Source: an uncultured Bdellovibrionales bacterium (GTDB taxonomy: Bacteria; Patescibacteriota; Minisyncoccia; Moranbacterales; GWC2-37-73). From it: a stretch of DNA of 64,000 nt. The notes below the pieces were generated by a model that worked only from the letters and a program-made list of their open reading frames with translations, made no database searches and was not told the origin of the DNA. Positions 1,338 through 22,449 of this stretch are shown piece by piece; position 1 is the stretch's first letter, and the number at the start of each line of letters is the position of its first letter. A program made the translations under genes and the position numbers. The stretch spans positions 54,119 to 118,118 of the forward strand of contig CAZCMV010000001.1 in NCBI GenBank assembly GCA_964500125.1, given 5' to 3'.

Positions 1338-1985
1338 TTAATTTTCTTCTTCTGGCAGAAAAGGCACATATTTCATATCACCCTCACTTCTCAATTTGTC
1401 ATAATGTCTCTTTTCTTGCCTTAAAAAATAATCAATTCTTTCCATAACTCTTTTTGAATCTTTTTCAGATTCTTCATTAAAACCATCAAGGGAATAACTA
1501 TGTGTATTTTCAGGATGAAGACAATGCAATAGTTCTTCTGTTATCCCAAGGATTTTTTCAACAGCTCCATATTTTATGGGGAATTTTTTTAATATATCGC
1601 CAGGATTCAACAAATGTTGTGCATTATAGTGTGAAAGTTGATGATGCCTTAAAACTGCAAGATTTTTCAATGTATCACCATTTTCAGCAATAATCTCTTC
1701 CGCTCTCGCCTTTCTTTTAATGTCTTTCTGATTAGCAATAAGAGAATAAACAGAAATAATTTTATCTTGCTCGCTATATTTTGAATTTTCAAAAATGTTT
1801 GCCAAAGCCTGAAGCCAAGTCTCTTCCAAGGAAAACATTGTGGCACCCCAAAAATTCTTATCCCTATCGAATTGCGGTTGATATGCTTTGTCTTGCAGAC
1901 CTTTCCAAACATAAAAGCAAAGGTGTGCCCTAGTTAAAAATTGGTATAATTTTTCGAATCTATTTTTATATTCTTTATTATCCAT
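1338..1985 (-). CDS. hypothetical protein, possible Abi/HEPN-like accessory protein (215 aa)
   Basis: Intact ORF directly downstream of the 422-aa HEPN-motif gene on the same strand; contains LRHHQLSH (R-x5-H-like); no confident family. Confidence 0.45.
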   Translation of the reverse strand: MDNKEYKNRFEKLYQFLTRAHLCFYVWKGLQDKAYQPQFDRDKNFWGATMFSLEETWLQALANIFENSKYSEQDKIISVYSLIANQKDIKRKARAEEIIAENGDTLKNLAVLRHHQLSHYNAQHLLNPGDILKKFPIKYGAVEKILGITEELLHCLHPENTHSYSLDGFNEESEKDSKRVMERIDYFLRQEKRHYDKLRSEGDMKYVPFLPEEEN

Positions 1986-2058
1986 AATTTTACAAAACCC
2001 CCGAATGGGGGGAGGGGGTGTTTTATATGAGCTATAGCCAGAAATTCTTCTGAAAATC

Positions 2059-3327
2059 TCAATTCAAACTCTTTATCCAGGAAACAACTTCCCTATTCTT
2101 TTCAATCGCATCTTCCGCCTCTTTCTCATTTATTTCTTTTCCTTTATGAATTACTTCGTTTCTAGTTTCATTGTAAATTAAACGCCATACATTCCAAAGC
2201 GTTTGATTATTAACAGAAAGAGACTTCCCAGTTGCTTCCTTGAGTAAATCCTTCAACCTTTCCTTAGTTCGCCATTTTTGTTCGAGTTTATCTTTTATTT
2301 CTGCCTCTAATAATCCTTTACTAGTAAATTTATTTATTAAATAATTTTCCAAAAAAATTTCCAATGCCTGAAATGATTCAACGACAGCTAAGGTAAACAT
2401 CTTCTTTTTGAGAGAATTGGAAGCATTCAAAAATAAAAGTTCATAAAGTTCTGGGCGAATGTTTTCTTTTAGCATTTTCTCAATTTCTTCAAGTTCATCT
2501 CTGGAACGATTCATAACCGCACTTTGAATATGTCCGTAATTAGAAGAAGTTAACAAAAATCCAGAATTATGTTCAAAAAATAATATGTGAGTTGTATTCA
2601 AAAAACCTACTCTATCAACAAAATCCTCTTCCGTTACAACTTTATAAATATCCAGAAATTTATTAACAATCAACTGGGCTTTTTCATCCAAAACCTTAAA
2701 GATTCCTTTATTAGAATGATCTGCATTATCGATTTCTTCTTTTTTGAAGTTAGTATCAAAAAATATGTTTAACCTAGAATAACGGAAATATCCGTTTGTA
2801 TCTCTAACCTTTTCAATATTTTTTCCTGTAAATCTCAACTCCCATCCAACATTTTCTTCTTGAGGAAATCTGGGAGTAATAATGTCTGGCTTATTAAAAT
2901 AACATATTTTATCTTTTGCCAAAAAATCAGACTCATCGGAGCCAGTCGCTTTGTCAGTCCATATTTTTTTCGACTCAATACAAGCTTTTTCACCATCACC
3001 CAAATCCACTCCAAGTGGGTAATAATTTGGTAAATGTAAACAATATGGAAGATTAACTTGAACTAATGTATTAAATCCATAGTTTTCTATTTTTAATTTA
3101 TCCGAAGGTTCATAAGGAACTGTAATTCCAGTAATAATTAAGGGTTTATCAGCATTAACATTTTTAATTTGTTCTTTTATATCATTCTCAAGTTTTTCTT
3201 TTTCATTTCCTTCTAATATTTCCCTGGGACCAAAAATAAAAAAATCTATTTTTTCTCCCGTATTAGGCATTTTTGCATTTATTATTATTTCTGCTATTTT
3301 TTTATTTCTCTTTTTTGTTTCAGTCAT
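2059..3327 (-). CDS. HEPN-motif (RNxxxH) protein, putative abortive-infection/defence RNase (422 aa)
   Basis: C-terminal alpha-helical region contains ETRNEVIHKG, the canonical R-N-x3-H HEPN motif; large N-terminal domain of unknown function. Confidence 0.55.
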   Translation of the reverse strand: MTETKKRNKKIAEIIINAKMPNTGEKIDFFIFGPREILEGNEKEKLENDIKEQIKNVNADKPLIITGITVPYEPSDKLKIENYGFNTLVQVNLPYCLHLPNYYPLGVDLGDGEKACIESKKIWTDKATGSDESDFLAKDKICYFNKPDIITPRFPQEENVGWELRFTGKNIEKVRDTNGYFRYSRLNIFFDTNFKKEEIDNADHSNKGIFKVLDEKAQLIVNKFLDIYKVVTEEDFVDRVGFLNTTHILFFEHNSGFLLTSSNYGHIQSAVMNRSRDELEEIEKMLKENIRPELYELLFLNASNSLKKKMFTLAVVESFQALEIFLENYLINKFTSKGLLEAEIKDKLEQKWRTKERLKDLLKEATGKSLSVNNQTLWNVWRLIYNETRNEVIHKGKEINEKEAEDAIEKNREVVSWIKSLN

Positions 3328-4599: not shown

Positions 4600-4786
4600 T
4601 TATTAGATAAATAACCCCGAACTTTATTCCGTGATTGTAAAAAACACTTATTACGAAACAAAAGAACACAAAAGGACTCAGTAATCCCCCCATCTTTGAC
4701 ATTGTACTACTATATCCATTGGCAAACACACTTCTTCCCATAATAATTACAACTATTGCAGAAATAATAATAAATGTTGTGCTCAT
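4556..4786 (-). CDS. small hypothetical membrane protein (76 aa)
   Basis: Two hydrophobic helices. Confidence 0.25.
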   Translation of the reverse strand: MSTTFIIISAIVVIIMGRSVFANGYSSTMSKMGGLLSPFVFFCFVISVFYNHGIKFGVIYLIIGISISSFVAPRRY

Positions 4787-5044
4787 ATTATTTATAGTAT
4801 GTTAATATATTTTGAAAACAAAAAAGGACAACCCTACTAGTTGTCGCACCCAAATAGACAGGTTATGCCTAATTGTTTTAAGTAAGGTTGCCCTATTCTG
4901 GGCACAACCTTACATTTTGCCTATCTGGCAAAATCCTATTTATTTGAATGCGACACCTAAAGAATACTGCATCGGGAGGCAAAAAGCAAACCTCGCATAG
5001 TTTGATTTTGAGCTAAATTTGGAGTAAATTAAAAGTATACAAAT

Positions 5045-5782: not shown

Positions 5783-5956
5783 AATCTTATAACGGCTTAC
5801 ATCGGCTTATAATGGATTGTGGACAACTCTTTCAAGGGTTGTTTTTTTGTTTTTTCTAAGCATTTTTTATAAAATGATAATCCAAAAAAGTAATTAAAAG
5901 TAATTTGCTTTGGGCAAATAATGAAAACATAAGAAATTTAAGTTTAACTCAAGGTT

Positions 5957-6148
5957 ATGTTTTCTGATGCACAAATCAAAAAATTTCAGATTATATACAA
6001 AAACCTCTACGAGGTTGAACTTAATCTTTCGGAAGTATGCGAAAAATTGGAAAGCCTAGTAAGAGTGATTGAGCTTACCTACAAACCAATGACTGAGAAA
6101 GAAATGGAACTGGTAAAAAAAAGACGTAAAGAAATGAAAATAATATGA
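5957..6148 (+). CDS. small hypothetical protein (63 aa), coiled-coil
   Basis: Stop overlaps start of next gene (ATGA coupling at 6145). Confidence 0.3.
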   Translation: MFSDAQIKKFQIIYKNLYEVELNLSEVCEKLESLVRVIELTYKPMTEKEMELVKKRRKEMKII

Positions 6149-6876
6149 GAGAGCCAAAGCACATTAGAAAGATAATACAAAAATCAGCATATGAAATGAC
6201 ACACGGAGGATTTGTTCCCAATTTACCAATAAGAAAAAAAGGCAAACAAAAAAGATTTTTTATTGACAATGAATACTATGAATGGGGCTATGCCAAGAAT
6301 CTTTCAAGGCAAGCCACGCTTGTTTATTTTTTATTGGCTAAATATGCAAATTCAAAAACTCAGGCGTGTTTTCCTGGAATGGATAGAATTGTTAAAGAAG
6401 GAGGAATTTCCAATAATCGGTATGTGTCCAGGGGATTGAAAGAACTTGAAAAATACAACCTGATTTTTGTAAACCGACCTGGAGCAGGAAAGGTAAATAA
6501 TTATTATCTACTGGACACTTCTGTTTGGAAAAAACTTCCTGGTTATGAAAAAGTTTCAATTTCCACAAAATCAAGTGTCAAAATGAACAACCCTGAGAGT
6601 CAAAAAGAACTACCAACCAAGGTCGAATTTGACCCACTAAATCATAGGAGTAATTCAACGGAAGAAATCATCACAAAAAAAGAAAAAACCATAGAAAAAC
6701 CAGAAGCTAAATTCATTTCTTTTTTTAATGCAAATTACAAAGAACAAGATATTTTATTGGCATTAACTGAAATTAACAAAGAAATCAAAGATATAGGATT
6801 TCAAGAAGTCCGATATAAACTCAAACAACTTACAGTGGAAGGAAAAATAAATCCTATAAGAGCACCATCCTGGTAA
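6145..6876 (+). CDS. winged-helix DNA-binding protein, possible element replication initiator/regulator (243 aa)
   Basis: Segment FPGMDRIVKEGGISNNRYVSRGLKELEKYNLIFVNRPG is a typical wHTH of phage/plasmid Rep or DnaD-like N-domains; sits immediately upstream of the recombinase. Confidence 0.5.
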   Translation: MREPKHIRKIIQKSAYEMTHGGFVPNLPIRKKGKQKRFFIDNEYYEWGYAKNLSRQATLVYFLLAKYANSKTQACFPGMDRIVKEGGISNNRYVSRGLKELEKYNLIFVNRPGAGKVNNYYLLDTSVWKKLPGYEKVSISTKSSVKMNNPESQKELPTKVEFDPLNHRSNSTEEIITKKEKTIEKPEAKFISFFNANYKEQDILLALTEINKEIKDIGFQEVRYKLKQLTVEGKINPIRAPSW

Positions 6877-6995
6877 TTCGTTTTCAATGCGAAAAACAAT
6901 AAAAAAATTCCGTTGTAATTTTCACTTTTGCTGAAAATGTATTTAGAGTCTACCTTTTTAGTAAAATTAAATAAGTTAATAAATTATAAAAATAT

Positions 6996-8660
6996 ATGAC
7001 TACAAATAAAACACAGGAAATCAAGTATTTCCTTTATGCGAGAAAATCTTCAGAAAGCGAAGACCGCCAGGTGCAATCAATCGACGACCAGGTTGGCAGA
7101 TTGGAGCGGTTAGCCAAGGAGAGAAACTTTCACATTAAGCACATTTACAAGGAATCAAAATCAGCGAAGAAACCAAACAATCGTCCCCTTTTTGATGAAA
7201 TGATGAAAAGAATTGAAAGCGGAGAGGTGGACGGAATTTTATGCTGGCACCTCAATCGTCTTTCCAGGAATCCGATAGACAGCGGGAAAATAAGCTGGCT
7301 CTTGCAACAAGGAGTTATCAAGTCGATTCAAACGATGGAAAAAGAATTTAGACCCGAAGACAATGTTTTGCTTTTTAGCGTTGAAAGTGGAATGGCAAAT
7401 CAATTTTGCCGAGAATTAAGCGTGAATGTAAAACGAGGCAATCAAAAGAAGCGAGAGGACGGCTGGAGACCTGGAATTGCACCCACAGGTTATTTAAACG
7501 ACCTAGCAACCCACACGATGCCCATAGACCCGTTGCGATTCAGATTGCTTCGCAAAGCGTGGGATTTGATACTTACTGGAAATTACACCGTGCCACAAGT
7601 TGCCGACAAACTTAATAACGAATGGGGATTCCGAACGATAAAGAAAAAACGACTTGGAGACAAGCCATTGGCATTAAGCGGGATGTATAAAATTTTCACC
7701 AATATCTTTTATGCAGGAATAATTGAACACAATGGAGTTCACTATCCAGGAAAACATAAGGCGATGATTACCTTGGATGAATTTGACCGTGCACAAATCA
7801 TACTTGGACACAAAGGGAAACCCAGACCCAAAAAACATCACTTCCCTTTCACAGGATTATTCCGTTGCCCTGAATGCGGTTGTATGTATACCGCTGAATT
7901 GAAAAAAGGGAAATATGTTTATTATCATTGCACACACAAAAATAAAAAAGTTAAATGTTCACAAAGAAAAGTTCTGGAGGAGAAAAAGCTCTTAGAACAA
8001 CTTGAATACGAACTTGGAAAATATACCATACCCCAAGAACTGCTCGCTTTGGCATTGGAAATAATCGAAAGCAGAAAGGAGACCAAAGCAGACGATGAAA
8101 AAATAATAGCCGAGACTCGCCAGCAAACTTTAGAGAAATTGAAAAACCAACAATCAAATCTCATAAGAATGCGAAGCAACGATATGATTGATGATGAACA
8201 ATTCAAAGTCCAAAGCGAACCGATAAAAAAAGAGATTGAGAGATTAAGTAATGAGCCTATGAGTGCCAAAGACCGAAAAGAAAAAACCCTAGAGCTAACT
8301 GAAAAAACTTTTGCCTTTTATGCTTACGCCCACAAAGCGTTTCTGACTGGCAATGATGAAACACGAAGAGAGCTTATATTTCATTTAGGTTCGAACCACG
8401 AAATAAAAGACAGAATAACCTCCATACAAGCCAAAGAATGGTTTTTGCCCGTAGCAAATAAGCGCAATGATATAAAGCGAGAATTTGAAAGGTTAGAACC
8501 GATGAAAAGTGGCTGTATAAAAGCAAAAAGCGGGCAATTAAGCCCACTTCTTAGCACTATGCACGGGGCTATGGACACGACTAGGAACAATATTTTGGAA
8601 AACTGGGACAGGATTGATGTCAGATTACAGCGCGCTCAAGCCTTATTACAGCGAATTTAA
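6996..8660 (+). CDS. large serine recombinase (resolvase/invertase catalytic domain + recombinase domain + zinc ribbon), element 1
   Basis: N-terminus YARKSSESEDRQVQSIDDQ (catalytic Ser motif), CWHLNRLSRN, and C-terminal CxxC...HC zinc ribbon; 554 aa. Confidence 0.85.
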   Translation: MTTNKTQEIKYFLYARKSSESEDRQVQSIDDQVGRLERLAKERNFHIKHIYKESKSAKKPNNRPLFDEMMKRIESGEVDGILCWHLNRLSRNPIDSGKISWLLQQGVIKSIQTMEKEFRPEDNVLLFSVESGMANQFCRELSVNVKRGNQKKREDGWRPGIAPTGYLNDLATHTMPIDPLRFRLLRKAWDLILTGNYTVPQVADKLNNEWGFRTIKKKRLGDKPLALSGMYKIFTNIFYAGIIEHNGVHYPGKHKAMITLDEFDRAQIILGHKGKPRPKKHHFPFTGLFRCPECGCMYTAELKKGKYVYYHCTHKNKKVKCSQRKVLEEKKLLEQLEYELGKYTIPQELLALALEIIESRKETKADDEKIIAETRQQTLEKLKNQQSNLIRMRSNDMIDDEQFKVQSEPIKKEIERLSNEPMSAKDRKEKTLELTEKTFAFYAYAHKAFLTGNDETRRELIFHLGSNHEIKDRITSIQAKEWFLPVANKRNDIKREFERLEPMKSGCIKAKSGQLSPLLSTMHGAMDTTRNNILENWDRIDVRLQRAQALLQRI

Positions 8661-8814
8661 CTCTTGCGCATCTCATTAAATGACAAATATAAATTAGCGA
8701 GTGAATCTAGCCATTCATCAGCCGTTTCACTTGATACATTCAAGTCATGATTTGCCTTGAAATAAGCGATTAATCTAATCCTTAATTCTTCTGAATATTT
8801 ATATTGCATATAGC

Positions 8815-9327
8815 TTATAACTTTTCATGATTAGTTCCACCTTTTAAATCATTACTAATCGCCTGCGCTAATTCTAGAAAGTTTCCACCCACTTGAATAT
8901 GTTGTATGGGCAGACTTATTGCTGAATATAATTCATCCACGAATTGATCACGATTTTTTCGTCTTGGGTCATTGTGTGATTTTCCATCCAATTCAATGGC
9001 AAGCAATGGTTTTGTTGTGGCATGATTGCACACAAGAAAATCAACATGGCGCGATTTGATTTTGCCACGAAGACCCCAATGACCATTACTGGATATATTC
9101 TTCTTGTCCACATCTACAAAGTCCTCAATGCGCACCTTAGACAATACAATATAAGCGTCTCCCAGCGCCTTCTGCAGATTAATGAATAATGCTTGCTCTG
9201 ATTCATTCATCACCCTGTCCTTCTTCTGATATGAAGACAAGCTCGTCAGTCTTTCCTTCTTCTCAATGAATGCCTTAGCAAGAGCAACAGCGACAATGAA
9301 GACGATTAAGATAATTGTCCAAGTCAT
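8815..9327 (-). CDS. DUF2726-family (restriction-endonuclease-like fold) protein with N-terminal TM anchor (170 aa)
   Basis: RHVDFLVCNHATTKPLLAIELDGKSHNDPRRKNRD matches the DUF2726 core (VDF..., ELDG.SH); N-terminal hydrophobic helix. Confidence 0.55.
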   Translation of the reverse strand: MTWTIILIVFIVAVALAKAFIEKKERLTSLSSYQKKDRVMNESEQALFINLQKALGDAYIVLSKVRIEDFVDVDKKNISSNGHWGLRGKIKSRHVDFLVCNHATTKPLLAIELDGKSHNDPRRKNRDQFVDELYSAISLPIQHIQVGGNFLELAQAISNDLKGGTNHEKL

Positions 9328-9413
9328 GGTTTTATTATTATTGAATTATATTTAATGAAACACGAAAACAAATCAACCCCGCTGTTTATCATGCAATAGT
9401 TGAAGAAAAAATA

Positions 9414-10214
9414 TTACTTTCCAGAAACATTATTTTCATAAACAAATACTGCACCATTTTTTTCAACAACATCCTTAACACATCGCATCCTTTCAATGAA
9501 ATTATCATCTGATTCATTTAAACTTTTCTTACAATCGTCACTCCATTTTTCCAACAAAAGAAGCCCTGCATGATGTAAAATTTTTTCAAAATCATCCGAA
9601 GAAAGAATTTGCACTTTATTGTTAATTGCATTAGTAATCTTTTCACTTTCCTTGTCATACAATGGAACTAATCCAATTTTGTTAACAGAGAAGAAATGTG
9701 TCAGTGAATTCCTTAAATCACGCAGATTTTTTGCACTTATTTTTCCTGCTCTTTTTGGGTTCTCCATTATCCACTTATTCTCCCTGCATAGGCAAAATTC
9801 GTTTATAAATTGATCCATCGCACCATCCGAAGCATCTCTGAGTTCCGCACTATCGCTCGTTTTTTTCTGATATGCAGTATGAAGACAACGAAGTGTCTCA
9901 AGATGAGCGAAAAGTACAATAAACTCCGACCTAACAGGACGAGGGAAATGGAACTTATCGGCTAACGTTTCCGGATTTTCAGAGAGTGTAAAGTTTAAAT
10001 CGTCCGGCGGATTCATTTTTGACATAAGAGCCAATAGTTCTCTGCATTGTCTTTTTATATCTTTCAGTCTTTTCTTATAGCCCATTAACTCATTAACTTC
10101 TGCTTCAATCTGAATTAAAAAACGAAAGACAACCCCAAATTCTGGATGAATATCAATTCTGTTTTGAACCTTATCCATAATCACAAATGGCATATTTTCT
10201 ATATTCTTGTTCAT
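9414..10214 (-). CDS. HEPN-motif (RNxxxH) protein (266 aa)
   Basis: NLRDLRNSLTHF contains R-N-x3-H; 4-nt ATGA overlap with upstream gene (translational coupling). Confidence 0.45.
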   Translation of the reverse strand: MNKNIENMPFVIMDKVQNRIDIHPEFGVVFRFLIQIEAEVNELMGYKKRLKDIKRQCRELLALMSKMNPPDDLNFTLSENPETLADKFHFPRPVRSEFIVLFAHLETLRCLHTAYQKKTSDSAELRDASDGAMDQFINEFCLCRENKWIMENPKRAGKISAKNLRDLRNSLTHFFSVNKIGLVPLYDKESEKITNAINNKVQILSSDDFEKILHHAGLLLLEKWSDDCKKSLNESDDNFIERMRCVKDVVEKNGAVFVYENNVSGK

Positions 10215-10828
10215 ATTGAAAAAGTTGTATTTTCAATGGTATCACCGACAATAAGTGAAAAGCTTTTGGTGGATGACACACCATTTTGAGTATTTACAGT
10301 AATTGTTATCTTGTATTTTCCACGCTCAAGTTTATGACTAGGATTTTTCCAGTCATAAACATATGATTCATTATTCCAACCATATGCCTCCTTGTCTTTT
10401 TCGTATTTTGTAATCACATCTAAAAATTCCTGATTACCGGCTAAAATTGTGACAGGATCCGGTTCAAAAAGTCTCAAAATGGCGTTGTCCTTTAAAAATG
10501 GTAGCTCTGGCGTTGACGCCCAGCGCCCCTTGAACGAAAGGTGTGTTTTATTATCAACTCCAGAAATATTTATCATTGCCCTGCAATTTTCAGCAGTTTG
10601 ACGAACAAGCCATGTTAATAAAAATGGCATTCTCTGATTAACGACAGCAACTCTGAAAAATTTCCATCGTTGACCAGAATGAGAACTGCTATTTTGATAA
10701 GTATTATCAGAATGAGCTTCTTCTGTAACTAAAATTTCAATCGCAGGCATCCTCATCCGATCAAACCACAATGCAAGCAAAATTCCAAAAAAAGTTGTAG
10801 CGATCGATAAAATTATATTTTCAAGCAT
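10211..10828 (-). CDS. single-pass membrane protein of unknown function (205 aa)
   Basis: N-terminal TM helix; 2 nt after the MTase stop and overlapping the next gene start. Confidence 0.45.
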   Translation of the reverse strand: MLENIILSIATTFFGILLALWFDRMRMPAIEILVTEEAHSDNTYQNSSSHSGQRWKFFRVAVVNQRMPFLLTWLVRQTAENCRAMINISGVDNKTHLSFKGRWASTPELPFLKDNAILRLFEPDPVTILAGNQEFLDVITKYEKDKEAYGWNNESYVYDWKNPSHKLERGKYKITITVNTQNGVSSTKSFSLIVGDTIENTTFSI

Positions 10829-10830
10829 AT

Positions 10831-13800
10831 TTATTTAATGCAATTATTTACTACCTCAACCTCTTCCATTGTAAGTCCGTAAAATCCAAAGATGAGCTTA
10901 TCAATTTGTAATTCAAATTCTCTAATATCGGAGCCATCATTCTCCCTCTTAATATCTAAAATGCGCTCGACAATACTTATAACTTCTTCCTGTTCTTTTT
11001 TATTGCCAATAAAAATAGGTATTTCAATAATTGGATCCTTGTCAATTTGATAATTATTACCCTGCATCTTTCCTTTATTGTGAAGCCAAAAAGCAATTAG
11101 TTTAGAATTCAATATTCCAGTTAAATACTTTTGATTAATTCTACTTGTTTTTATAGAAAAAAATGCCCTAGAAACATAACAAGGAAAATCCGTGTAGGTA
11201 AATGTTGGACATGCACATTTTCTAACGGACATTATTTTTTCTCCTTGAAAAAAAGATTCTTTCCTTGGTCTATTTAAACCATAAGGTCCATTCTCAGATG
11301 TAATAATATCCTTAAATTTATCTAGATGCTTTTTTACCTCAGGATAATCATTGATTTTATCAGCTTTTTTAAATGATGAATCCGTATAGATGATCCAGAA
11401 CTTATTTTTTTTATTTCCAAAAATACCCTTTAATTCTTTTGTTGTATAATATGGTTTTAATAATTTATTTTCTTTTTCTGACAACTTAATGTTTTCTTTT
11501 TCATTATTTGAAAGAACAAATATACCATCTCCTATTTTAAAATTATTGCCAATTTCTTTTAAGGATTTTTTATTTACAAAATCCTGAAGAACATCAATTC
11601 CAGACATTAACTCACTTTTACCATCAATGAAAAACTTACCCTTTTCTGAAATCTTATTCAATATATTATTATCCTGAAGACTGCTAAAGACAAAGGTTTT
11701 ATTCTCGAAATAAGAACGATTGAAATTAGGATTAAGGTAGCAAAACTTATCATCCTTAACTTTATTTAATATTTTATTTACACAATTCAATGAAATTTTA
11801 TCATCAATTATTTTTCTATAATCAAATTGATACTCATTTAAACTATTATTTCGCTGAAGCAACATTATCATTGTTTGAATATCAGCACTTTCAAAAATTT
11901 TATAATTACCAAAATCAATAAAAGAAATCATTTTGGCATCTTTTGCGATCTTTAATCTAAGCTTAGAGGCCCCCGCATTTGTAACCCAATTATTAGAAGC
12001 AATAAAAGCAAGCACGCCAGTATTGGTCTTAAGTAAATCAATGAAAGTACAGGCAAAAAGATACCACAAATCCATTTTCCCTTGATAATACTGACTTTCA
12101 CGAAGTCCATCGAAAGCAGATTTATCTGTATGCTCTTTAATATAAGGTGGGTTCCCAATAACTACATCAAAACCACCCTTCTCTCTGAAAACGTCACTAA
12201 ACTCAAGCTTCCAAATAAAAAATGGACGGATATTCTTACGCCTAAGTTCTTTTATTTCCTCAAGCTTTTCCGTTTTACCCTGTTCTGCCAGTGTAATCTC
12301 AATCAGTTCCCACTTTAAATTATCAATCTCTTCTTTCAATTCTTGCTTATGTGTTCTTCGTGATTCACTTATGTATTGTTCAATTTTATTATGCAGAAGC
12401 TTAGTTTTCTCTTCTGCAATTCTCCTTTTTTCTGGAATTCCAAAAAGATTATTACTACTCGTATCAGAATTTTCAGATCCCTTGGAAAATAATTTAAGTC
12501 TTGATTGTAATGATTTTATTTCCCTCTCAATTTCCATCTTTCTAATTACTGTCAACTTGCCCTTATAATGCAGATCAAAATACTCCCGTTGAAATTTAGA
12601 AATTTCATCATTGACTTCTACTTTTTCTTTTTCTAAAGATTGCGCACTTTCAAGTATTGAATCATCAAATAATTTAATGCCTTCATATTCGGAAATAAGA
12701 CTATTACCTTGCATTATTTTATGCTCGAGATTTGGCAAGGGGTGCGGAATGTTTTCATCAACAACCAATGACAGCCAGAGGCGAAGCTTAGCGATTTCAA
12801 CCGCACCAGGATCAAGATCAACACCATAAATGGAATGGGAGATAGTGTGAAGTTTTAATTCATAATCAGAAATATTATCATCAAGATATATATTTAAGAC
12901 CTTTCTAGCTCTAACTATCTCATTAATCATGCCAAGCGGAAATGCGCCCGAACCAACAGCAGGATCAGCAATTTTTATATTTTCTAAGAGCTGATCTAAC
13001 AAAATTGCTTTTGATCTAATAGAGCCAGGCAGAAGTAATTCATATTTACCTCTATATTCAAAACCGCTAATTTCCTTTTCCCTTATCTTTTCTAGAGCAA
13101 CTTTGTCATTATCAATGATTCTATCTCCCCTACGTATAAGCAACTCTAAATCCTGCCTTGCAATATCAGTGCCGACTTCAGCTTCCAAATAGTTAATAAG
13201 ACTTTCTTGGCACATATAATGTACAATTTCACGAGGAGTGTAAAAAGCGCCCTTGCTTTTTCTATCTTTGATATCAAGCAAGTTTTCAAAAACTTTTCCA
13301 AGCATTTCAGGATCAACCGCAACCTCTTTTTCTAAAGGCTCATTTTCATTTACAGTAAAATTATATCTATCAAAAATATCAAAAATACCATCTCCGATAT
13401 CCCCTTCTTTGGTTCTATTATTATTAGAAAAAAGATCGTCAGGAAGAACAATGTTGGTGGTTTCCCATTTATATCCATTCATTGGTTCAAATAATCCACC
13501 ATTTAAAAATGGCATCCTGCAATTATTTAATCTAGGATAAATCGATTCCTTGCCACGATCTTGTGCAAGAGCTTCGTAAAATAATGGCTCCAAAACATCA
13601 TTAAAGAAATTTTTACCATATTTTTTTCGGCGTTCGAATAGTTCGCGTATGAATTTCTTAGGTCCCTCGCCCCATTTTTTTTCAGGCGAAACACCAAACC
13701 AGCCTTTTTTTTGTAAAAAATAAAGGAAGACAATTTGCCCTAAAGTTTTTTTTGCAAAATCAACCGTTGAAATTTCCTTTTCTTCAAATTCTTTTTTTAT

Positions 13801-14445
13801 CTTTTCATCATTAAGAAGAACAGCATCCAAACATTCCTTGAGATGAAAATATAACTCGGTATATTTACTAAAAAATTCTTTTGTTATTACTTCAATATCA
13901 AAAGCAAGTTCCAATTCTGAAAGATTTGGATTTTCATTACTTATAAGCAGATTCATAAATCTACTTTGTGCTGTATGACTACCTTCATTTTCACCAACCA
14001 AAAATGACCATCTCCGAGCAGGGGTTATTTCTGCCTTGGTTTTTAATTTTTCATTTACAACCTCCAAGGAATGTTCCAATTTTACAAGTGAAAGACGCCA
14101 ATCTCTATTTCCAGGAGAAACAAACGCTACCAAAGCTGCTTCCTTGTTATTTGTCTTAAGATACTCGGCTACAAAATTTCGTTGAGCTGTTCTAGCTCTC
14201 TCAAGAGTTGAATTTTTGTTAAGAGCAACTTCCAATATGTCTATTTTATTCCCAAAGCAATCCTCAAAATATCCAATTACCTTATATTTAAGAATAAATG
14301 GAAGAAATGAATGTTTTATGATCGGCTCAAAACCACTCGACTTATACTCCTTAAAAAGATTTCTAACGAAAAGTAGGAAGTTATTTTCATCAAACTTATC
14401 ATTAAACGCAGATGCAATAATTTTTTTTGCTTCTTCCTTTGTCAT
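10831..14445 (-). CDS. gamma-class N6-adenine DNA methyltransferase, Eco57I/PglX/DrmMI-like (1204 aa); possibly a Type IIG R-M fusion
   Basis: GAFYTPREIV (motif X), DPAVGSGAFPLG (SAM motif I), VVIGNPPYIKEH (NPPY motif IV); long C-terminal TRD-like region; ~170-aa N-terminal domain of unclear function. Confidence 0.85.
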   Translation of the reverse strand: MTKEEAKKIIASAFNDKFDENNFLLFVRNLFKEYKSSGFEPIIKHSFLPFILKYKVIGYFEDCFGNKIDILEVALNKNSTLERARTAQRNFVAEYLKTNNKEAALVAFVSPGNRDWRLSLVKLEHSLEVVNEKLKTKAEITPARRWSFLVGENEGSHTAQSRFMNLLISNENPNLSELELAFDIEVITKEFFSKYTELYFHLKECLDAVLLNDEKIKKEFEEKEISTVDFAKKTLGQIVFLYFLQKKGWFGVSPEKKWGEGPKKFIRELFERRKKYGKNFFNDVLEPLFYEALAQDRGKESIYPRLNNCRMPFLNGGLFEPMNGYKWETTNIVLPDDLFSNNNRTKEGDIGDGIFDIFDRYNFTVNENEPLEKEVAVDPEMLGKVFENLLDIKDRKSKGAFYTPREIVHYMCQESLINYLEAEVGTDIARQDLELLIRRGDRIIDNDKVALEKIREKEISGFEYRGKYELLLPGSIRSKAILLDQLLENIKIADPAVGSGAFPLGMINEIVRARKVLNIYLDDNISDYELKLHTISHSIYGVDLDPGAVEIAKLRLWLSLVVDENIPHPLPNLEHKIMQGNSLISEYEGIKLFDDSILESAQSLEKEKVEVNDEISKFQREYFDLHYKGKLTVIRKMEIEREIKSLQSRLKLFSKGSENSDTSSNNLFGIPEKRRIAEEKTKLLHNKIEQYISESRRTHKQELKEEIDNLKWELIEITLAEQGKTEKLEEIKELRRKNIRPFFIWKLEFSDVFREKGGFDVVIGNPPYIKEHTDKSAFDGLRESQYYQGKMDLWYLFACTFIDLLKTNTGVLAFIASNNWVTNAGASKLRLKIAKDAKMISFIDFGNYKIFESADIQTMIMLLQRNNSLNEYQFDYRKIIDDKISLNCVNKILNKVKDDKFCYLNPNFNRSYFENKTFVFSSLQDNNILNKISEKGKFFIDGKSELMSGIDVLQDFVNKKSLKEIGNNFKIGDGIFVLSNNEKENIKLSEKENKLLKPYYTTKELKGIFGNKKNKFWIIYTDSSFKKADKINDYPEVKKHLDKFKDIITSENGPYGLNRPRKESFFQGEKIMSVRKCACPTFTYTDFPCYVSRAFFSIKTSRINQKYLTGILNSKLIAFWLHNKGKMQGNNYQIDKDPIIEIPIFIGNKKEQEEVISIVERILDIKRENDGSDIREFELQIDKLIFGFYGLTMEEVEVVNNCIK

Positions 14446-14447
14446 AT

Positions 14448-17400
14448 CTAGTTGATATTAAAATATTCAGAAAGTATAATCTCCTTTTTTGCAGATACAC
14501 CATCATTTTGCTCGTTTTGATTTGGCATCAAGAAATCAGCAGGAAGAGTGGTTTTTAAGATTGCCAGAAGTTTAATTGGGTTCGCAATAATTTCTGGCAT
14601 TTCCTGAATTTTATTATAAATTGTTTGAGATATTTTCTTTGGAATTCCACCAGTGTTAAGCTCCTCAATAACTTGTCTAATATAAGATTCATCATCCTCT
14701 GTAAAGCCCTTAAAATTTCTAATTTCTTTTGCGCTCAAAAGCTTGTGAAGACGTGCGGCATTATCCCTACTTCCACGCTTAGATGAAAATTCTTCCTCCT
14801 CATTCTCGCCAACATTTTTCAACATTTCCAAATTCTTATCAAGCAATTCATAGAATAGTTTATCTTGTTTGTTTTTTTTCTCATCTGGCTGAGCCGATAG
14901 TGTTTTTGCCGCTTCCGTAAAATCAATCTCGGAAGAAACTGAGACTGCACCATTTTCCACAATGAAAAACTTTTGTAATTTTCCTTTTCTGAAATATGTT
15001 AGTAATTTAACAATACTATCTTTTGATTCACGAACTGTTCTTGCCTTCTTTGGAAGTCTTTTTATTTTTTCAAATAATTCAGGATTTTCATCCCTTATCC
15101 TTCTGATCTCTTGCAAATACCCAAGCTCACTTTCTCCCTCATCCATCTCACCCTCAATCATTTCTTTTGATAAGATTTGACTGAAAAGGCTGTGCCCTTC
15201 TGGGACTTCACTTTCAGTTAGAAGTTTTGCGTCAGCACCAAGCAATGTGATGAATGCTTGAATTTTAGCTTCTGCCATTTCTTTTAATTTAATCTGCTCA
15301 TTTGATTGGTCTGTTGGAAAAAAAGTATATGTATAAATTTTGTCATGTTTTGCATCGACTCTGTTTATGCGACCGACTCGTTGCATTATACGTGTAGGAT
15401 TCCATGGAATATCATAATTTATAACGACATTCGCCTGATGTAAATTAGCACCTTCAGACAAAACATCTGTTGTTATCAGAAGCGTGAAATCATTCTTAAT
15501 ATTTTTTGCATTTGCATCAAAATTCTCCATCACTATTTCTCGTTCCGCCTGTGAACTCTCTCCTGAAAAATACAGGATTTTATCTGGAAAAATATCTTGC
15601 AAATTCTTCACCAAATATTGTGCTGTTTCTTTTGATTCGGTAAATATTATAGACTTTCCAATTTTTACAGGCTCCTCAATGGCAAGCTTTTCCTTAAATG
15701 CTATGATTTTAGGATCGCGATCGATACCTTTCCATAATTCCTGAATATCTTTCAGGATATTCAAATCATTATTAAGATCAACAATAAAGTTTTCATTAAA
15801 TTCATCACTAGAAAATTTCTCCGCTTTGCCATTCGCAATAAGCTGATCAATAGCATCCAAATTATCGTTCTCTAAATAATCAAATATTTTTTGAATATTT
15901 TTTTTGCTCACATATACATTGCCAGAATTGAACTCATTTATAAATTTTTCATATGACGCAACAAAGCGATTTATCGATTGACTAAATGCAAAAAAACTAC
16001 TTTCTAATCTTTTAATCAAAAGCATTCTCATGAATTTCATCATGTTCTTTTGTTGTTGCTCCTCTGAACTCAAAAGCCCCTTATGATAAAGTAACGGCGT
16101 ATAGCGAGAATACTTGAAATCATTGGTTATAATCTTAATTGTCTCAAAAAAAACATTGTCTTCTTTTTCATTGAATTCATAAAAAATCGGCTCTGGATTG
16201 GCAATTTCAGGAAAACTCATTTTTTGTTTTTTCAAATCATCTCCGTAATATTTTGTGATTTCCGTTCTGGTGCGTCTAACCATTAAATATTTCAATACGC
16301 GCTCTCTAATCAATTTAGAGTTTTCTTTTGTAATGGAAATATATTCTTGTTTATCTTTTTGCCTGTCGAGCCCTTTAAGTTTTTTCTCTAAATTCTTAAA
16401 AAACCCCTCAAGATCAGGAAGACTTGGAATTGTACTTTTTCTTGAGCGCTGAAAAAGTTTAATCTGTGCTAACAAATCAGATGGCGAATTATTATATGGT
16501 GTAGCTGTCACCAAGATAACTTTTTTGCCCCTGCAAATCTGCGCAAGCTTTGCATAGGTATCAGTTTCCTCTGTTCTGAATCGATGCGCTTCATCAATAA
16601 GAACAACATCAAAATCCTTCTGCAAGTCCTTTTTTATTATCTTATCCAAAATCCCAATCGACATGCATTTGTAATCTTTTGCTCGAAATCCAAAATTGCG
16701 AAAAGCGTTTTCCCAGCTTCCCTCATTGCTCTCGCTAATCAAGTGTGGTGGCGCCAAAACCAATGTCCTGCCCTTTAACTCCTGACAAAGCATTGTGCCC
16801 ATGAAGGTTTTACCAAGACCCACAACATCCGAAAGAAAAACACCACCATATTCCTCCACAATTTTTCGAGCGTTAATAACAGCATGATCCTGATATTTTA
16901 ACTCCTTAAAATTGTGCGGACGGAAATTGTGCTCCAATGATTGGCTCTCATTAATCTCTTCCTTAAAATATTCATACAGAAATTTTAGATAGAGCTCGTA
17001 TGGAGTGATATCTTCGCGAAGCCATGTATCTTTTTTTATCGTTTCTAGATATTTTTCACTCACATCAACTCCTTTTTCCCATAACTCTTCAAATTTAGAC
17101 TTGGCAAATTCATAATCAGAAGGATTCTTAAGCTCAACATTAAATTCCAAATTATCCACCAAGCCACTTTGTGTAAAATTGCTTGAGCCAGTAATAACAC
17201 GACCAAGATCCCGATCATCTTCATCGAATGTCATTATGTACAATTTGGAATGAATCTTTTCTTCAGGATAAGCTCGGATTTCTAATTTATCACTAGACAG
17301 CCATTCAATAAATTTCAACACCCCTTCTTCTACTTTTACATTGTTTTCACAATCTTCCATTTCTTTTTTTACCTCCTCACCAATCTGTTCTCCTATTTCC

Positions 17401-17687
17401 TTGTGTGATTGAATTTTTTGAAGCAAATCATAAGTCTGATGATTAGTGCTAATTCCAATCAGAATTCTTATTTTTTCAGTTTTTTCCAAACTAGGATAAA
17501 TAGCATAAAAACCGCTTGTATAAAAATAACCAACCAAGACATCAAAAAAACGTGTGTCTTTAATTAAAACTCTGAAACGATCAGCAAGATTATTGTTTTT
17601 TTCATTGGTTAAAAATGTAAGATCTGTATTCATGTTTTTATTGAAAATAGAAAAATTATAAATCAGTCCATTTAAATTCAAAGGCAA
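14448..17687 (-). CDS. PLD(HKD)-family nuclease fused to SNF2-family helicase (1079 aa)
   Basis: N-terminal PLD: YFYTSGFY..., HSKLYIMTFD (HxKx4D), GSSNFTQSG. Helicase: GLGKT (motif I), VLIDEAHRFR (DEAH), C-terminal QRVGRINR (motif VI). Confidence 0.85.
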   Translation of the reverse strand: MPLNLNGLIYNFSIFNKNMNTDLTFLTNEKNNNLADRFRVLIKDTRFFDVLVGYFYTSGFYAIYPSLEKTEKIRILIGISTNHQTYDLLQKIQSHKEIGEQIGEEVKKEMEDCENNVKVEEGVLKFIEWLSSDKLEIRAYPEEKIHSKLYIMTFDEDDRDLGRVITGSSNFTQSGLVDNLEFNVELKNPSDYEFAKSKFEELWEKGVDVSEKYLETIKKDTWLREDITPYELYLKFLYEYFKEEINESQSLEHNFRPHNFKELKYQDHAVINARKIVEEYGGVFLSDVVGLGKTFMGTMLCQELKGRTLVLAPPHLISESNEGSWENAFRNFGFRAKDYKCMSIGILDKIIKKDLQKDFDVVLIDEAHRFRTEETDTYAKLAQICRGKKVILVTATPYNNSPSDLLAQIKLFQRSRKSTIPSLPDLEGFFKNLEKKLKGLDRQKDKQEYISITKENSKLIRERVLKYLMVRRTRTEITKYYGDDLKKQKMSFPEIANPEPIFYEFNEKEDNVFFETIKIITNDFKYSRYTPLLYHKGLLSSEEQQQKNMMKFMRMLLIKRLESSFFAFSQSINRFVASYEKFINEFNSGNVYVSKKNIQKIFDYLENDNLDAIDQLIANGKAEKFSSDEFNENFIVDLNNDLNILKDIQELWKGIDRDPKIIAFKEKLAIEEPVKIGKSIIFTESKETAQYLVKNLQDIFPDKILYFSGESSQAEREIVMENFDANAKNIKNDFTLLITTDVLSEGANLHQANVVINYDIPWNPTRIMQRVGRINRVDAKHDKIYTYTFFPTDQSNEQIKLKEMAEAKIQAFITLLGADAKLLTESEVPEGHSLFSQILSKEMIEGEMDEGESELGYLQEIRRIRDENPELFEKIKRLPKKARTVRESKDSIVKLLTYFRKGKLQKFFIVENGAVSVSSEIDFTEAAKTLSAQPDEKKNKQDKLFYELLDKNLEMLKNVGENEEEEFSSKRGSRDNAARLHKLLSAKEIRNFKGFTEDDESYIRQVIEELNTGGIPKKISQTIYNKIQEMPEIIANPIKLLAILKTTLPADFLMPNQNEQNDGVSAKKEIILSEYFNIN

Positions 17688-18720: not shown

Positions 18721-18970
18721 TTTCGAAAAAGAAAGGCGCCCCAAAGAAAAACACTATATATACAAAATGCATCCATGTTCAAGAATTGAACTTTCGAAAA
18801 GAAACGATGTACATATAACCATATATTATATATACATTATGTTCCCATGTTCAAGAATTGAACCTTCGATGAGAAAAGATGTATATATAAACATTCAATA
18901 TATATAAATAGCCACCCCATATATATTTTTTGTTTTTTTCCATGTAAGGGCGCCGAACTTTTTCGAAGGT
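18721..18970. repeat. AT-rich cassette: two ~70-bp direct repeats, each with a TTCAAGAATTGAA palindrome, flanked by ~20-bp imperfect inverted repeats (GGCGCC...CTTTTTCGAA)
   Basis: Direct repeats at 18771-18844 and 18845-18910; left flank tttcgaaaaagaaaggcgcc (18721-18740) and right flank gggcgccgaactttttcgaa (18948-18968) are reverse complements with 3 mismatches. Confidence 0.5.
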
Positions 18971-19099: not shown

Positions 19100-19900
19100 A
19101 AACACTAACTGGTGAGCCTGATTAAGAGAGCAATTTTCCGCCAGCCCGCACCCGCAACGAACCGCAGACTTCAGCAAATTCACAAAACCAAACAGAGGCG
19201 CAGTTGAGCATTTTGAGAGTTGCTGTCACGCATTCCAAAAAGAAATTTTCTGAGCAGGTGCCTTGTTTTTCTCTTGGCGACCACGGGAGCACAAGAGCAA
19301 AAAACAAGAGCATCAGCGGAGGGAAATTTCGTCGTGACAGCAACGGTCAAGAAAAAGGAGCGGAAAGATTGTGCTTGGAGGACGATTAAGTCCGACAAGC
19401 TTTCATTATCCGCGACCACCTTTGACACGATTGAGAAGCGAACCACCAGCGTTGATTGCAATGAGAGGGAGAGCGAACGACCGTCCCTGCAGAGCGACCA
19501 CTTCTTTTGAAGTCGTTGCAGTCTCAAGCCCCTCAAGACTGAGGGGTTGGGGGTGTTGAAAGTCCAAGCGAGAAAAGAAAAGAGTGTCTGACAATGCTGC
19601 ATTCTTGCGACATTCCAAGCTGTCAAAAATGACGCCGAGGGAACGCAGAAGGAAATTTTTGAAACAGCTTGTGCCAATGTCGCAAAATGTCACATTGTCA
19701 GAGGGTGAGAAACACCTTCCTTCAGAATGTTAAATCGTCAAAGTGTTTCTCAATCCCCTTGCACCTTTTCTTTTCAACTCCTTGAGGGATTGGAGTTTGA
19801 GGAAAACCGCAGTGGTTTTCTCTCATTTTTAAAGAGTTTTTTCAAAATCTATAAAAATAGTGCGGTGAGAAACATTTTTCTATTCGAAAAGAATTGAAAC
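19100..19900. other. GC-rich (~50%) non-coding island; candidate large structured RNA or decayed foreign DNA
   Basis: No convincing ORF on any frame (overlapping low-complexity ORFs on both strands); perfect hairpins e.g. cccctca-agac-tgagggg (19531-19548); long-range complement tgcgacatt (19606)/aatgtcgca (19677); motif ggtgagaaaca twice (19705, 19867). Confidence 0.3.
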
Positions 19901-19935
19901 TTGCCTGTCTGATTTTTCCGGTAATCCGGAAAATA

Positions 19936-20337
19936 TCAGTCTGGCAAGTTCTCCTCTGTGTATTTATATTTTCGAATAGAAAAATGTTTCTGACCGCTTT
20001 CCTTAATGATTGATTTTGAAAAGACCTCCGCTTTGTATTTAAAGAGTTTGGCGAGAATTAAGACTGCTTTTTCGGAAAAATCTTTGCCGAGCCAACTCCC
20101 TATTTGGAGCCGTAGAAGCACGGAAAGTATCACTAGAAATAAATAAAATACTATGATATTATTGATGTGGACACAACTAAAATACTCATCGAAGACAGAA
20201 AGGGCAACCTTTGCTGCAATCTTCGATGAGAAGTTGTGTCCAAAGCGGGGTTGTCCTTTTTGTTTTGCAAAAAATATGAATCTTCTGGACACAATTTCTT
20301 TATCAAATAGCGGAATGGCCAGCGCAGGCGAGCTCAT
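19936..20337 (-). CDS. hypothetical membrane-associated protein (133 aa)
   Basis: ORF divergent from recombinase 2; one hydrophobic helix. Confidence 0.3.
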   Translation of the reverse strand: MSSPALAIPLFDKEIVSRRFIFFAKQKGQPRFGHNFSSKIAAKVALSVFDEYFSCVHINNIIVFYLFLVILSVLLRLQIGSWLGKDFSEKAVLILAKLFKYKAEVFSKSIIKESGQKHFSIRKYKYTEENLPD

Positions 20338-20399: not shown

Positions 20400-21989
20400 A
20401 TGAAATACGTCATTTATGCCCGAAAATCAACCGAGAGCGAAGACCGCCAAGCGCTCTCAATTCAATCTCAAATCTTTGAGATGAAAGAAGTCGCCAAGCG
20501 CGAACATCTTAAAATTGTTGAGGTTCTGGAAGAATCCAAATCCGCCAAACAACCCGGCCGACCGATTTTCAATGATATGATTAAGAAATTCAAAAGCGGA
20601 AAATATGAAGGAATTCTCTGTTGGAAAATAGACCGACTCGCCAGAAATTCACTCGACGCAGGAATGGTGCAATGGCTTTTGGAAAAAGGAACAATCAAGC
20701 AAATAAAAACCTTTGAGCGCGATTATAATCCAAGCGACAACGTCGTGATGGCCAGCATTGAGTTTTCAATGGCCAACCAATATGTCCGCGACCTTTCCAA
20801 GAATGTGAAGCGTGGACAGGCGGAAAAGATTCGTCGTGGCGAATATCCTGCCACTCCCCCAGTCGGATATCTCATCGATTATAAAACCAAGAAAATATAC
20901 ATCGACGAAGATAAATGGCATCACATCAAAAAAGCTTTCCAGCTTTATGCGACTGGAAATTATTCAATTCCAAAACTGGCCGAGAAACTTTCAAAGGAAG
21001 GTTTTCGCTCACGCAATGGCCGACCAGTCCACGGATCCGGAATATACCAAGTTCTCAATAATCCTATTTATTACGGATGGTTTCGTTGGAATGACCAAAT
21101 CTATAAAGGAATTCATGCTCCGATGATTTCCAAGGATTTGTTTGATGCGGTGCAAGAAGTTTTTCATCCAAGAAAGCACACAGTTGAACGCAACGTTCAC
21201 AATTTTGTTTTTCGTGGGCACTTGGTTTGTGGAGAATGTGGATTGAAAATAACTGCAGAAACTCAAAAAGGTCATGTGTATTATCACTGCACAAAATCAA
21301 AAGGCGTGGACAAATGTTCACAGAAATATTTGCGCGAGGAAGATTTGATCACAGAAATCGACAGCCGTTTGGCAAAACTAAAAATTGACGAGGATGTGCT
21401 CGACCTTATGATTGAAGCATCAAGAGAATTGAGCAAGCATGAATGGAACGACATCCGCGAAATAGAAAAGAAACATCAAGCACTTCTGGACAATAATAAA
21501 TTCAGACAGGACTCACTCATTGAAAAGTACATCAGCAATGTCATTCCGGATGAGCACTACAATCGCAAATTGGCAGAGCTTCGCAATGAAGAAGCGGACA
21601 TCGAAGACAATCTGCGAAGCACCAAGGAGAATTTTCACAATGTTTTTGAGAAGATTGAATTGGCTGCGAGATTCGCCAAATTTGCCAAAAAGATCTTTGG
21701 GCGTGGCGATTTAGAAATCAAAAAAGAAGTTGTGGCAATCCTGACTTCGAACATTATCATAAAAGACAAGCAAATAAAGGAATTTCGCCTCGCTGAGCCA
21801 TTCGCCAGCGTGATGAAAGATGTTGAAATCACAAAGGGAAAAGGCAACGGAAAATCCAGTATCGAACTTGGCAGTTTTGCTTTATCTAAAACTAAAACAG
21901 CCCCCAAAAGGGAGGCTGTTTCACTTATGCACGGGGTGAGGGAATCGAACCCCCGCCAAAAGTTTTGGAGACTCTCGTTCTGCCACTAA
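20400..21989 (+). CDS. large serine recombinase, element 2 (paralogue of 6996-8660)
   Basis: YARKSTESEDRQALSIQSQ catalytic motif, CWKIDRLARN, zinc ribbon CGECG...HC; about 45-50% identical to recombinase 1 over the N-terminal 170 aa; 3' end reads through the tRNA-Trp 3' half (…HGVRESNPRQ…). Confidence 0.85.
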   Translation: MKYVIYARKSTESEDRQALSIQSQIFEMKEVAKREHLKIVEVLEESKSAKQPGRPIFNDMIKKFKSGKYEGILCWKIDRLARNSLDAGMVQWLLEKGTIKQIKTFERDYNPSDNVVMASIEFSMANQYVRDLSKNVKRGQAEKIRRGEYPATPPVGYLIDYKTKKIYIDEDKWHHIKKAFQLYATGNYSIPKLAEKLSKEGFRSRNGRPVHGSGIYQVLNNPIYYGWFRWNDQIYKGIHAPMISKDLFDAVQEVFHPRKHTVERNVHNFVFRGHLVCGECGLKITAETQKGHVYYHCTKSKGVDKCSQKYLREEDLITEIDSRLAKLKIDEDVLDLMIEASRELSKHEWNDIREIEKKHQALLDNNKFRQDSLIEKYISNVIPDEHYNRKLAELRNEEADIEDNLRSTKENFHNVFEKIELAARFAKFAKKIFGRGDLEIKKEVVAILTSNIIIKDKQIKEFRLAEPFASVMKDVEITKGKGNGKSSIELGSFALSKTKTAPKREAVSLMHGVRESNPRQKFWRLSFCH

Positions 21990-22000
21990 ACTAACCCCGC
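21930..22000 (-). tRNA. tRNA-Trp(CCA)
   Basis: Reverse complement folds as cloverleaf: acceptor GCGGGGT/ACCCCGT (G1-U72), anticodon stem AGAGT/ACTTT with loop CUCCAAA, T-arm GGGGG-TTCGATT-CCCTC, discriminator G. Confidence 0.75.
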
Positions 22001-22331: not shown

Positions 22332-22449
22332 ATAATTAGCTAGGCATTAGCTATTTAGCTTTTTGGGGAGCTAACAGCAAAAACCGTATATATTAACGCA
22401 GAATTATTTCCTATACATGGTGCCGACTGGCAACTGTCGACAAACCTAG

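Follow-up and report, generated by a model that had tools for sequence, protein, structure and literature searches.

A candidate HEPN-type RNase gene and a separable membrane-protein gene at the tail of a restriction-type operon

A 64,000-nucleotide stretch of DNA from an uncultured Bdellovibrionales bacterium (assembly GCA_964500125.1, contig CAZCMV010000001.1, positions 54,119 to 118,118; the window in the following, with positions counted from its first letter) contains a restriction-type operon, and near its end lie the genes for a 205-amino-acid (aa) membrane protein of a family that we call A2 (10211..10828, minus strand) and for a 266-aa, mostly α-helical, HEPN-like protein of a family that we call A1 (9414..10214, minus strand). 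We think it somewhat more probable than the reverse that the two are separate accessory genes in a stack at the operon's 3' tail, with A1 being an RNase of the HEPN type that is guarded by the restriction-modification (RM) system and A2 an independent membrane accessory. Both open reading frames (ORFs) begin with ATG, and the plus strand reads TCAT at 10211-10214, where the minus-strand TGA stop of the A2 gene overlaps the ATG of the A1 gene. The M1 start of A1 is backed by homologues with equally long N-termini; one Logan gene call starts at Met8 instead (259 aa), which leaves a 17-bp gap to the A2 gene and no overlap. An earlier note, made from the letters of the sequence, had given these coordinates, lengths and the ATGA overlap and had placed the two genes downstream of a methyltransferase. 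All of this is borne out: a gene with Eco57I, N6_Mtase and TaqI_C domains ends 2 bp upstream of A2.

The HEPN assignment of A1 starts from the segment NLRDLRNSLTHF (residues 163-174), which holds the putative catalytic motif R168-N-S-L-T-H173, read from the sequence and encoded at 9696..9713 on the minus strand. For a protein of the composition of A1, R-N-x3-H is expected by chance about 0.03 times per protein and the looser Rx4-6H about 1.2 times. The motif by itself therefore says little, and its weight comes from conservation. In our alignment of 108 members, which reaches down to about 20% identity and in which counts are taken over the sequences with a residue at the column, R168 and H173 are kept in 107/107 members, while N169 is kept in 96/107 and otherwise replaced by C, S or H. 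All 108 members have E or D at position 106, and R95 is kept in 100/104. When only the 31 most distant members are compared, the R and the H are the sole invariant columns. The conserved features of the family are IEKE in helix 1, R95, LETL, LRNSLTHFFS and W224.

The AlphaFold2 model of A1 is mostly helical (predicted local distance difference test score (pLDDT) 84.3, predicted TM-score (pTM) 0.82). At the level of secondary structure, as assigned by DSSP on this model, helix 161-171 has R168 and N169 close to its end, with H173 in the coil that follows; the long helix 94-117 bears E106, and the next long helix after the motif spans 206-234. In the published description of the HEPN active site, the motif sits where core helix-3 ends and the loop to helix-4 begins, a polar residue follows the R, and an acidic residue, typically within Ex3[KR], is found in helix-2 (PMC3710099). 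The position of the motif and N169 agree with this description; position 106 is always acidic and lies in the preceding long helix, but in the context L-E-T-L-(R) and not Ex3[KR]. The R-N-x3-H that the earlier note had read in the 266-aa protein is present and invariant in its R and H, and it does fall at a helix end and loop start as in HEPN proteins.

A word-indexed search of 5.8 billion proteins gave 25 relatives of A1, and an exhaustive scan with HMMER through 1.84 billion representatives extended the family to 219 representatives at E<=1e-3. None of them is named by a source annotation, and A1 has no Pfam, NCBIfam or significant PADLOC match. Relatives were absent from IMG/VR (phage) and PLSDB (plasmid), for which reason we rejected a phage or plasmid origin. 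Below the thresholds, HEPN models recur: the Pfam models HEPN_Swt1 (4/24 members) and HEPN_Apea (3/24 and 3/31) and, among the 108 aligned members, the HEPN-bearing PADLOC models Cas13a (10), Cas13-ApeA (3), Csx1 (3), DUF3644 (1) and CARF_HEPN (1). The A1 protein of the window itself weakly matches the C-terminal region of Csx1. The other recurrent weak matches are to SEC-C (Pfam) and, in up to seven members, to E2, E1-E2 and PDC-S12 (PADLOC). Seven of the distant members carry an N-terminal SEC-C zinc motif, GRNDPCPCGSGKKYKxCY (for example P0250, P0251, P0261, P0268, P0270 and P0272), and the E2, E1-E2 and PDC-S12 matches probably stem from such fusion members. Outside the matches ascribed to this fusion, all recurrent weak matches are to HEPN-bearing models, and these come from independent families. 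The 2013 HEPN survey (PMC3710099), in which SEC-C and SecC do not occur, has no mention of this domain combination. A third homology search, built on an alignment of distant members and meant to reach relatives with a Pfam annotation, brought up only members of the A1 family that have none, some of them with SEC-C. Judged from its sequence features, the 266-aa A1 protein is likely a HEPN-type RNase.

The genomic surroundings of A1 point to restriction. We collected 89 A1 loci, which fall into 56 non-redundant groups at 90% protein identity, and in at least 24 of the 56 an RM gene of type I, II, III or IIG lies within three genes of A1; in L001, L004, L006 and L113 it lies slightly farther away. 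The immediate neighbours are highly diverse, yet mostly on the same strand and tightly coupled, with DNA methyltransferases and type I S/M subunits making up the largest clusters of neighbours. In seven groups A1 is framed by HsdS and HsdR, and its junctions with them overlap or measure 4 bp (L082, L087/88, L089, L090, L095, L101 and L102); in L095 the order is HsdS 4719-5960, A1 5965-6780 and HsdR 6777-9575. This is the position that prrC occupies in EcoprrI (PMC3710099). Direct RM neighbours elsewhere are an MjaI restriction endonuclease (REase), an EcoRI methylase, a D12 methylase, a MutH-like REase, a type III Mod and GmrSD, and further settings are type I-like or MmeI-like systems. Other nucleases also adjoin A1, namely a PD-(D/E)xK nuclease after a reverse transcriptase and, in L006, a GIY-YIG nuclease beside an operon of the cyclic-oligonucleotide-based antiphage signalling system (CBASS). 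Additionally, A1 proteins joined by single linkage at 90% identity or more (the L050-L054 group and others) adjoin a D12 methyltransferase, an MjaI REase and an N6_N4 methyltransferase; near-identical A1 proteins beside different RM types indicate a very recent shuffling of A1 between restriction systems. From this data we infer that residence in RM operons of many types is the defining habit of the family.

Anantharaman et al. described in 2013 at least 16 HEPN clades that are linked to RM systems and interpreted them as a PrrC-like second line of defence (PMC3710099), and the RM linkage of A1 is the pattern described for those clades. Like A1, the families ApeA/BMEI1217, EC042_2821 (DUF3644), DUF4145 and the Abi2/Swt1 type (PMC3710099) are small and mostly helical, carry R-[polar]-x3-H, lie inside or beside several RM types and adjoin nuclease or helicase subunits, and A1 echoes the Swt1, Apea, Csx1, Cas13 and DUF3644 models weakly. 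It differs from them in that it reaches no model threshold, has its own conserved features and no Pfam or NCBIfam entry, and has a fold known by prediction. With PrrC of the type Ic EcoprrI operon A1 shares the place between hsdS and hsdR in the seven non-redundant loci and, by analogy, the proposed logic in which an RNase is silenced by the RM complex and freed when restriction is neutralised. The embedding in an RM operon that characterises PrrC/RloC-type guard nucleases is also found for A1, which in the window comes after a methyltransferase. However, PrrC has an N-terminal ABC-type nucleoside triphosphatase (NTPase) that regulates the nuclease, for which the 266-aa A1 shows no counterpart in Pfam, NCBIfam and PADLOC scans, and the host system in the window is a PLD/SNF2 helicase plus a type-IIG-like methyltransferase instead of a type I system.

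In the mechanism that we propose, A1 would be a metal-independent HEPN-type RNase with a putative active site made of R168, N169, H173 and E106. By analogy with PrrC-EcoprrI and the RM-linked HEPN clades (PMC3710099), it may be held inactive by a neighbouring restriction or nuclease component, and a phage that disables or overwhelms restriction would release it as a second-line abortive-infection RNase. A2 would be a membrane-anchored accessory with a ligand- or protein-binding sandwich that faces the cytoplasm. It may cooperate with A1 in this lineage, as a membrane tether or as a second effector, without either of them depending on the other.

How closely A1 and A2 belong together can be read from their distribution. 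Both genes occur together in the window and in L001 only, that is in two of the 89 A1 loci. Between these two, A2 and A1 form a single collinear alignment of 1422 bp with 74.8% identity, whose ends fall no more than about 10 bp from the cassette borders, even though the RM surroundings differ (PLD/SNF2 plus type-IIG-like methyltransferase in the window, type I-like in L001). The shared block despite differing surroundings suggests that A2 and A1 travel as a unit in this lineage. Elsewhere A1 occurs without A2 in 87/89 loci and A2 without A1 in about 33 of 35. At a divergence similar to that between the window and L001, A1 stands alone with a PD-(D/E)xK protein in L115 (73.5% identity at the nucleotide level, 72% at the protein level), with a 291-aa protein in L113 and with GIY-YIG in L006, while A2 stands alone in L116 and L117 (75-78% at the nucleotide level), the island of L117 being syntenic with that of L001. 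Since each gene occurs alone at equal divergence, an obligate two-component system is unlikely.

The A2 protein begins with a transmembrane (TM) helix at residues 2-25 (AlphaFold2 pLDDT 96-97), which coincides with a 19-residue hydropathy peak from residue 4, so that the single TM segment noticed earlier is confirmed. The whole model has a pLDDT of 93.8 and continues from the TM helix into a β-sandwich of the immunoglobulin (Ig)/PKD type, with a PKD-like sequence in the last hairpin. The count of K and R rises from 0.27 before the helix to 3.18 in the 15 residues behind it, and the concentration of positive charge after the helix predicts a cytoplasmic domain. Homologues form 102 clusters, none of them annotated, with 15 invariant residues and conserved aromatic and polar blocks (RWKFFR, RQTAENC, GRWASTPE, PDPV, AYGWNNE-Y and TQNG). 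PADLOC has no match for A2, and Foldseek gave weak, generic matches (Ig, arrestin, archaellin, ApaG-like; TM-score <0.5). We rejected a type IV pilin or archaellin reading on account of these scores and because no pilin-type leader was seen on inspection of the sequence. Small size, an N-terminal TM segment, a compact β-rich domain and a place in a defence operon are traits that A2 shares with membrane abortive-infection effectors (the β-barrel/TM Cap15 of CBASS, RexB, the P4-satellite hydrolase-TM); it differs in its single TM helix, its very strongly conserved Ig/PKD-like sandwich and the lack of a nucleotide-signalling partner, and no homology to them was detected.

Hosts of A2 include bacteria of the candidate phyla radiation (CPR), Bathyarchaeota, Gammaproteobacteria, Omnitrophota and Poribacteria, a spread that marks the gene as horizontally mobile. 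In L014 a type III RM system is followed by DUF3644, a HEPN family (PMC3710099), and A2 with a 4-bp overlap; L015 has DUF5677 and A2; L117 has a type I-like RM system, two genes of no assigned family, A2, MazE and NUDIX; L121 has an SF1 helicase-PLD gene, A2, one further gene and a Pfam-matched HEPN_AbiU2. In L029, from a metagenome-assembled genome of Candidatus Poribacteria, we found homologues of the operon's own helicase (34% identity) and methyltransferase (25%), an inverted fragment of a target-recognition domain, a tyrosine recombinase and an A2 relative (22%). As a separate observation, L029 2253-7758 runs from the methyltransferase through the inverted 211-aa fragment, which resembles its C-terminal target-recognition domain, and the tyrosine recombinase to the A2 relative, and this looks like a phase-variable specificity switch of the shufflon type. 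Outside RM systems A2 follows an integrase next to xseA (L116), separates, as a 53%-identical homologue at L120 5001-5624, the two ABC ATPase genes of a liv-type operon for branched-chain amino-acid transport, far from defence genes, belongs to a conjugative element near an NYN RNase (L122) and adjoins a SIR2 protein (L021); an NYN RNase is also near A2 in L010. We infer that the A2 family associates independently with the tails of RM and helicase-nuclease operons. Finally, A2 is tightly coupled in L008 to a 229-aa protein that has RHKVAH, and in L117 to a 238-aa protein that has RNDGFGH. Both were negative in hhalign and Pfam and are HEPN-like by motif only, so that DUF3644 (L014) and AbiU2 (L121) are the Pfam-supported HEPN genes near A2. 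hhalign of A1 against the single sequences of DUF3644 (L014), DUF5677 (L015) and these two proteins gave no relationship, and a local hmmsearch of the neighbours was also negative.

Several points weigh against A1 as a guarded HEPN RNase. No HEPN model of Pfam, NCBIfam or PADLOC matches A1 at its curated threshold, Foldseek with the model (pLDDT 84) retrieved no HEPN structure from the PDB or BFVD, and profile searches of PDB sequences, run with A1, A4 and A2, returned nothing relevant. The context of position 106 is L-E-T-L-(R), unlike the typical Ex3[KR], and no P-loop/ABC NTPase or other obvious regulatory domain was found in A1 by Pfam, NCBIfam and PADLOC. The RM association was counted via clusters that are annotated by one representative each, many contigs are short, and the guard logic is an analogy and not a result. 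The interpretation given in the earlier note is partly supported. A1 could instead be an α-helical RM accessory of another sort (a regulator, for example, a DNA-binding adaptor or a factor for specificity or assembly), in which R and H serve binding and not catalysis. The missing profile and fold matches fit this, as do the SEC-C motif of the seven distant relatives and the consistent placement by methyltransferase, S, R and REase genes, which would also suit a structural role. We nevertheless judge it quite improbable, given that R-[N]-x3-H and the helix-end location match the published HEPN site (PMC3710099) and the preceding helix has an always-acidic residue, that the recurrent weak matches outside the SEC-C fusion are all HEPN-bearing, and that A1 is found away from RM by the reverse transcriptase with PD-(D/E)xK and by the CBASS-adjacent GIY-YIG. 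Very improbable is the idea that the pair, or A1 alone, is an addiction or stabilisation toxin of a serine-recombinase island and not an anti-phage effector. In its favour, two serine recombinases and a tRNA cluster border the island, A1 genes of other loci repeatedly have serine-recombinase homologues nearby, and HEPN toxins are common in toxin-antitoxin modules (PMC3710099); but the dominant conserved association of A1 is with RM genes and not with recombinases, its neighbours on both sides are highly variable, and it has no conserved MNT or other recognisable antitoxin partner. Indeed, unlike in HEPN-MNT toxin-antitoxin systems, no nucleotidyltransferase neighbours A1, whether in the window or at any of the 89 loci.

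A2 and A1 might also work together as a dedicated two-component module of the abortive-infection or toxin kind, as the earlier note had suggested for what it called a translationally coupled pair, with A2 as sensor, anchor, antitoxin or pore effector. We regard this as unlikely. The ATGA coupling and the 1.4-kb collinear block kept in the different RM island of L001 do stand in its favour, together with the tight coupling of A2 to other HEPN or HEPN-like genes (L014 DUF3644, L008, L117), the AbiU2 gene two genes downstream of A2 in L121 and the NYN RNases nearby in L010 and L122. The distribution given above stands against it: the two genes are separable and adjacent in only two of the 89 A1 loci, equally diverged A1 genes have other partners (L115, L113, L006), and A2 lives without A1 in L116, L120 and L117. 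Moreover, the L008 and L117 neighbours are HEPN-like by motif only, and HEPN genes are frequent in defence islands generally. HEPN-TM is listed in DefenseFinder as FS_HEPN_TM. This immune system has been reported from phage-inducible chromosomal islands (PICIs; PMC12948488) and likewise has genes for a HEPN and a transmembrane protein on a mobile island, which favours a module; the likeness is one of architecture only, the island in the window is not a PICI and has serine recombinases instead of PICI hallmarks, and its genes are separable. A wider version, in which A2 is the general membrane partner or effector of interchangeable RNase modules (A1, DUF3644 HEPN, Rx4-5H proteins, AbiU2- or NYN-adjacent contexts), forming a combinatorial abortive-infection system of membrane platform plus RNase at the tails of diverse RM operons, seems to us a rather long shot. 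We therefore stay with two separate accessory genes.

While RM-linked HEPN proteins have been known since 2013 (PMC3710099), new here are two specific unannotated families that are absent from Pfam, NCBIfam and PADLOC. If the RNase assignment is true, A1 adds an uncatalogued clade to the RM-embedded HEPN effectors of the second line, and being spread over operons of types I, II, III and IIG, it lends itself well to tests of the long-standing hypothesis of a PrrC-style guarded suicide RNase. A2 is a separate, widely transferred family of bacteria, CPR and archaea with enzyme-like conservation, which turns up again and again where restriction and helicase operons end. The locus illustrates how small accessory genes are shuffled, cassette by cassette, between unrelated RM systems.

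The operon lies in a run of five consecutive minus-strand ORFs (window 8815-17687) with gaps of 2 bp, 2 bp, -4 bp (the ATGA) and 86 bp. Gene 1 (14448..17687) encodes a 1079-aa PLD(HKD)-nuclease plus SNF2-type helicase (Pfam PLDc_2, RE_NgoFVII, ResIII, SNF2-rel_dom and Helicase_C; PADLOC HKD+Snf2 4.6e-51), and its stop is spaced by 2 bp from the gene of a 1204-aa Eco57I/type-IIG-like N6-adenine DNA methyltransferase (10831..14445, minus strand; Pfam Eco57I 2.2e-33, N6_Mtase, TaqI_C; PADLOC REase_MTase_IIG 2.9e-206), whose target-recognition region is TaqI_C/MmeI-like. After A2 and A1 comes a 170-aa, nuclease-like DUF2726 protein with an N-terminal hydrophobic helix (8815..9327, minus strand; Pfam DUF2726 1e-26). 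No terminator-like site was found within the five-ORF run, including the stretch from 9414 to 8815, and the tail of the operon probably ends with DUF2726. Its hydrophobic start resembles a TM helix (MTWTIILIVFIVAVALAKAFI), so that two membrane-anchored proteins flank the HEPN-like gene. We rejected an assignment of the two large genes to the DISARM (defence island system associated with restriction-modification) or BREX (bacteriophage exclusion) systems, because they are matched only in part and core genes are absent: in the DISARM class 1 comparison, the two large proteins show partial DrmD, DrmMI and DrmC-like matches below the cut-off, and no ORF of the operon is DrmA (DUF1998 helicase) or DrmB.

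The operon lies in what the surroundings suggest is a mobile or invertible island. A large serine recombinase gene (6996..8660, plus strand) is convergent with the operon, a paralogous one lies at 20400..21989 on the plus strand (both Pfam Resolvase/Recombinase/Zn_ribbon_recom), a cluster of tRNA-Trp, -Thr, -Tyr and -Thr genes lies next to them at 21929-23152, and a 48-nt inverted repeat with 75% complementarity has its arms 15.4 kb apart (4787-4834 and 20248-20295). Beyond the operon tail, a 74-bp block of 84% identity is shared between the window (8571..8644) and L001 (11317-11390). In the window it supplies the final 29 codons of the ORF for the serine recombinase (MDTTRNNILENWDRIDVRLQRAQALLQRI*), in L001 a stand-alone short ORF between NUDIX and Fic genes, and it could be a recombination scar or the remnant of an attachment site.

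A second, independent HEPN gene (1338..1985, minus strand) encodes 215 aa and matches Pfam HEPN_AbiU2 above the cut-off (1.8e-07). The region 1237-2056 shares 84% DNA identity with L121 4883-5696, where AbiU2 lies two genes downstream of the A2 homologue. Near the AbiU2 gene, at 1985..2059, the window holds one copy of a conserved intergenic element of about 75 nt with a terminator-like hairpin, ATTTTCGGAAGAATTTCTGGCTAT...CCCCC-ATTC-GGGGGTTTTG; L121 holds two (3992-4065 and 4883-4954), which flank a 263-aa gene. The element may mark cassette junctions. It is not at the borders of the A2/A1 cassette, and integron-like junctions were rejected on this ground. The largely non-coding stretch upstream of the operon contains tandem 72-nt repeats that are 81% identical (18755..18898) and a 29-nt inverted repeat with 97% complementarity and a separation of 78 nt (19862..19997).

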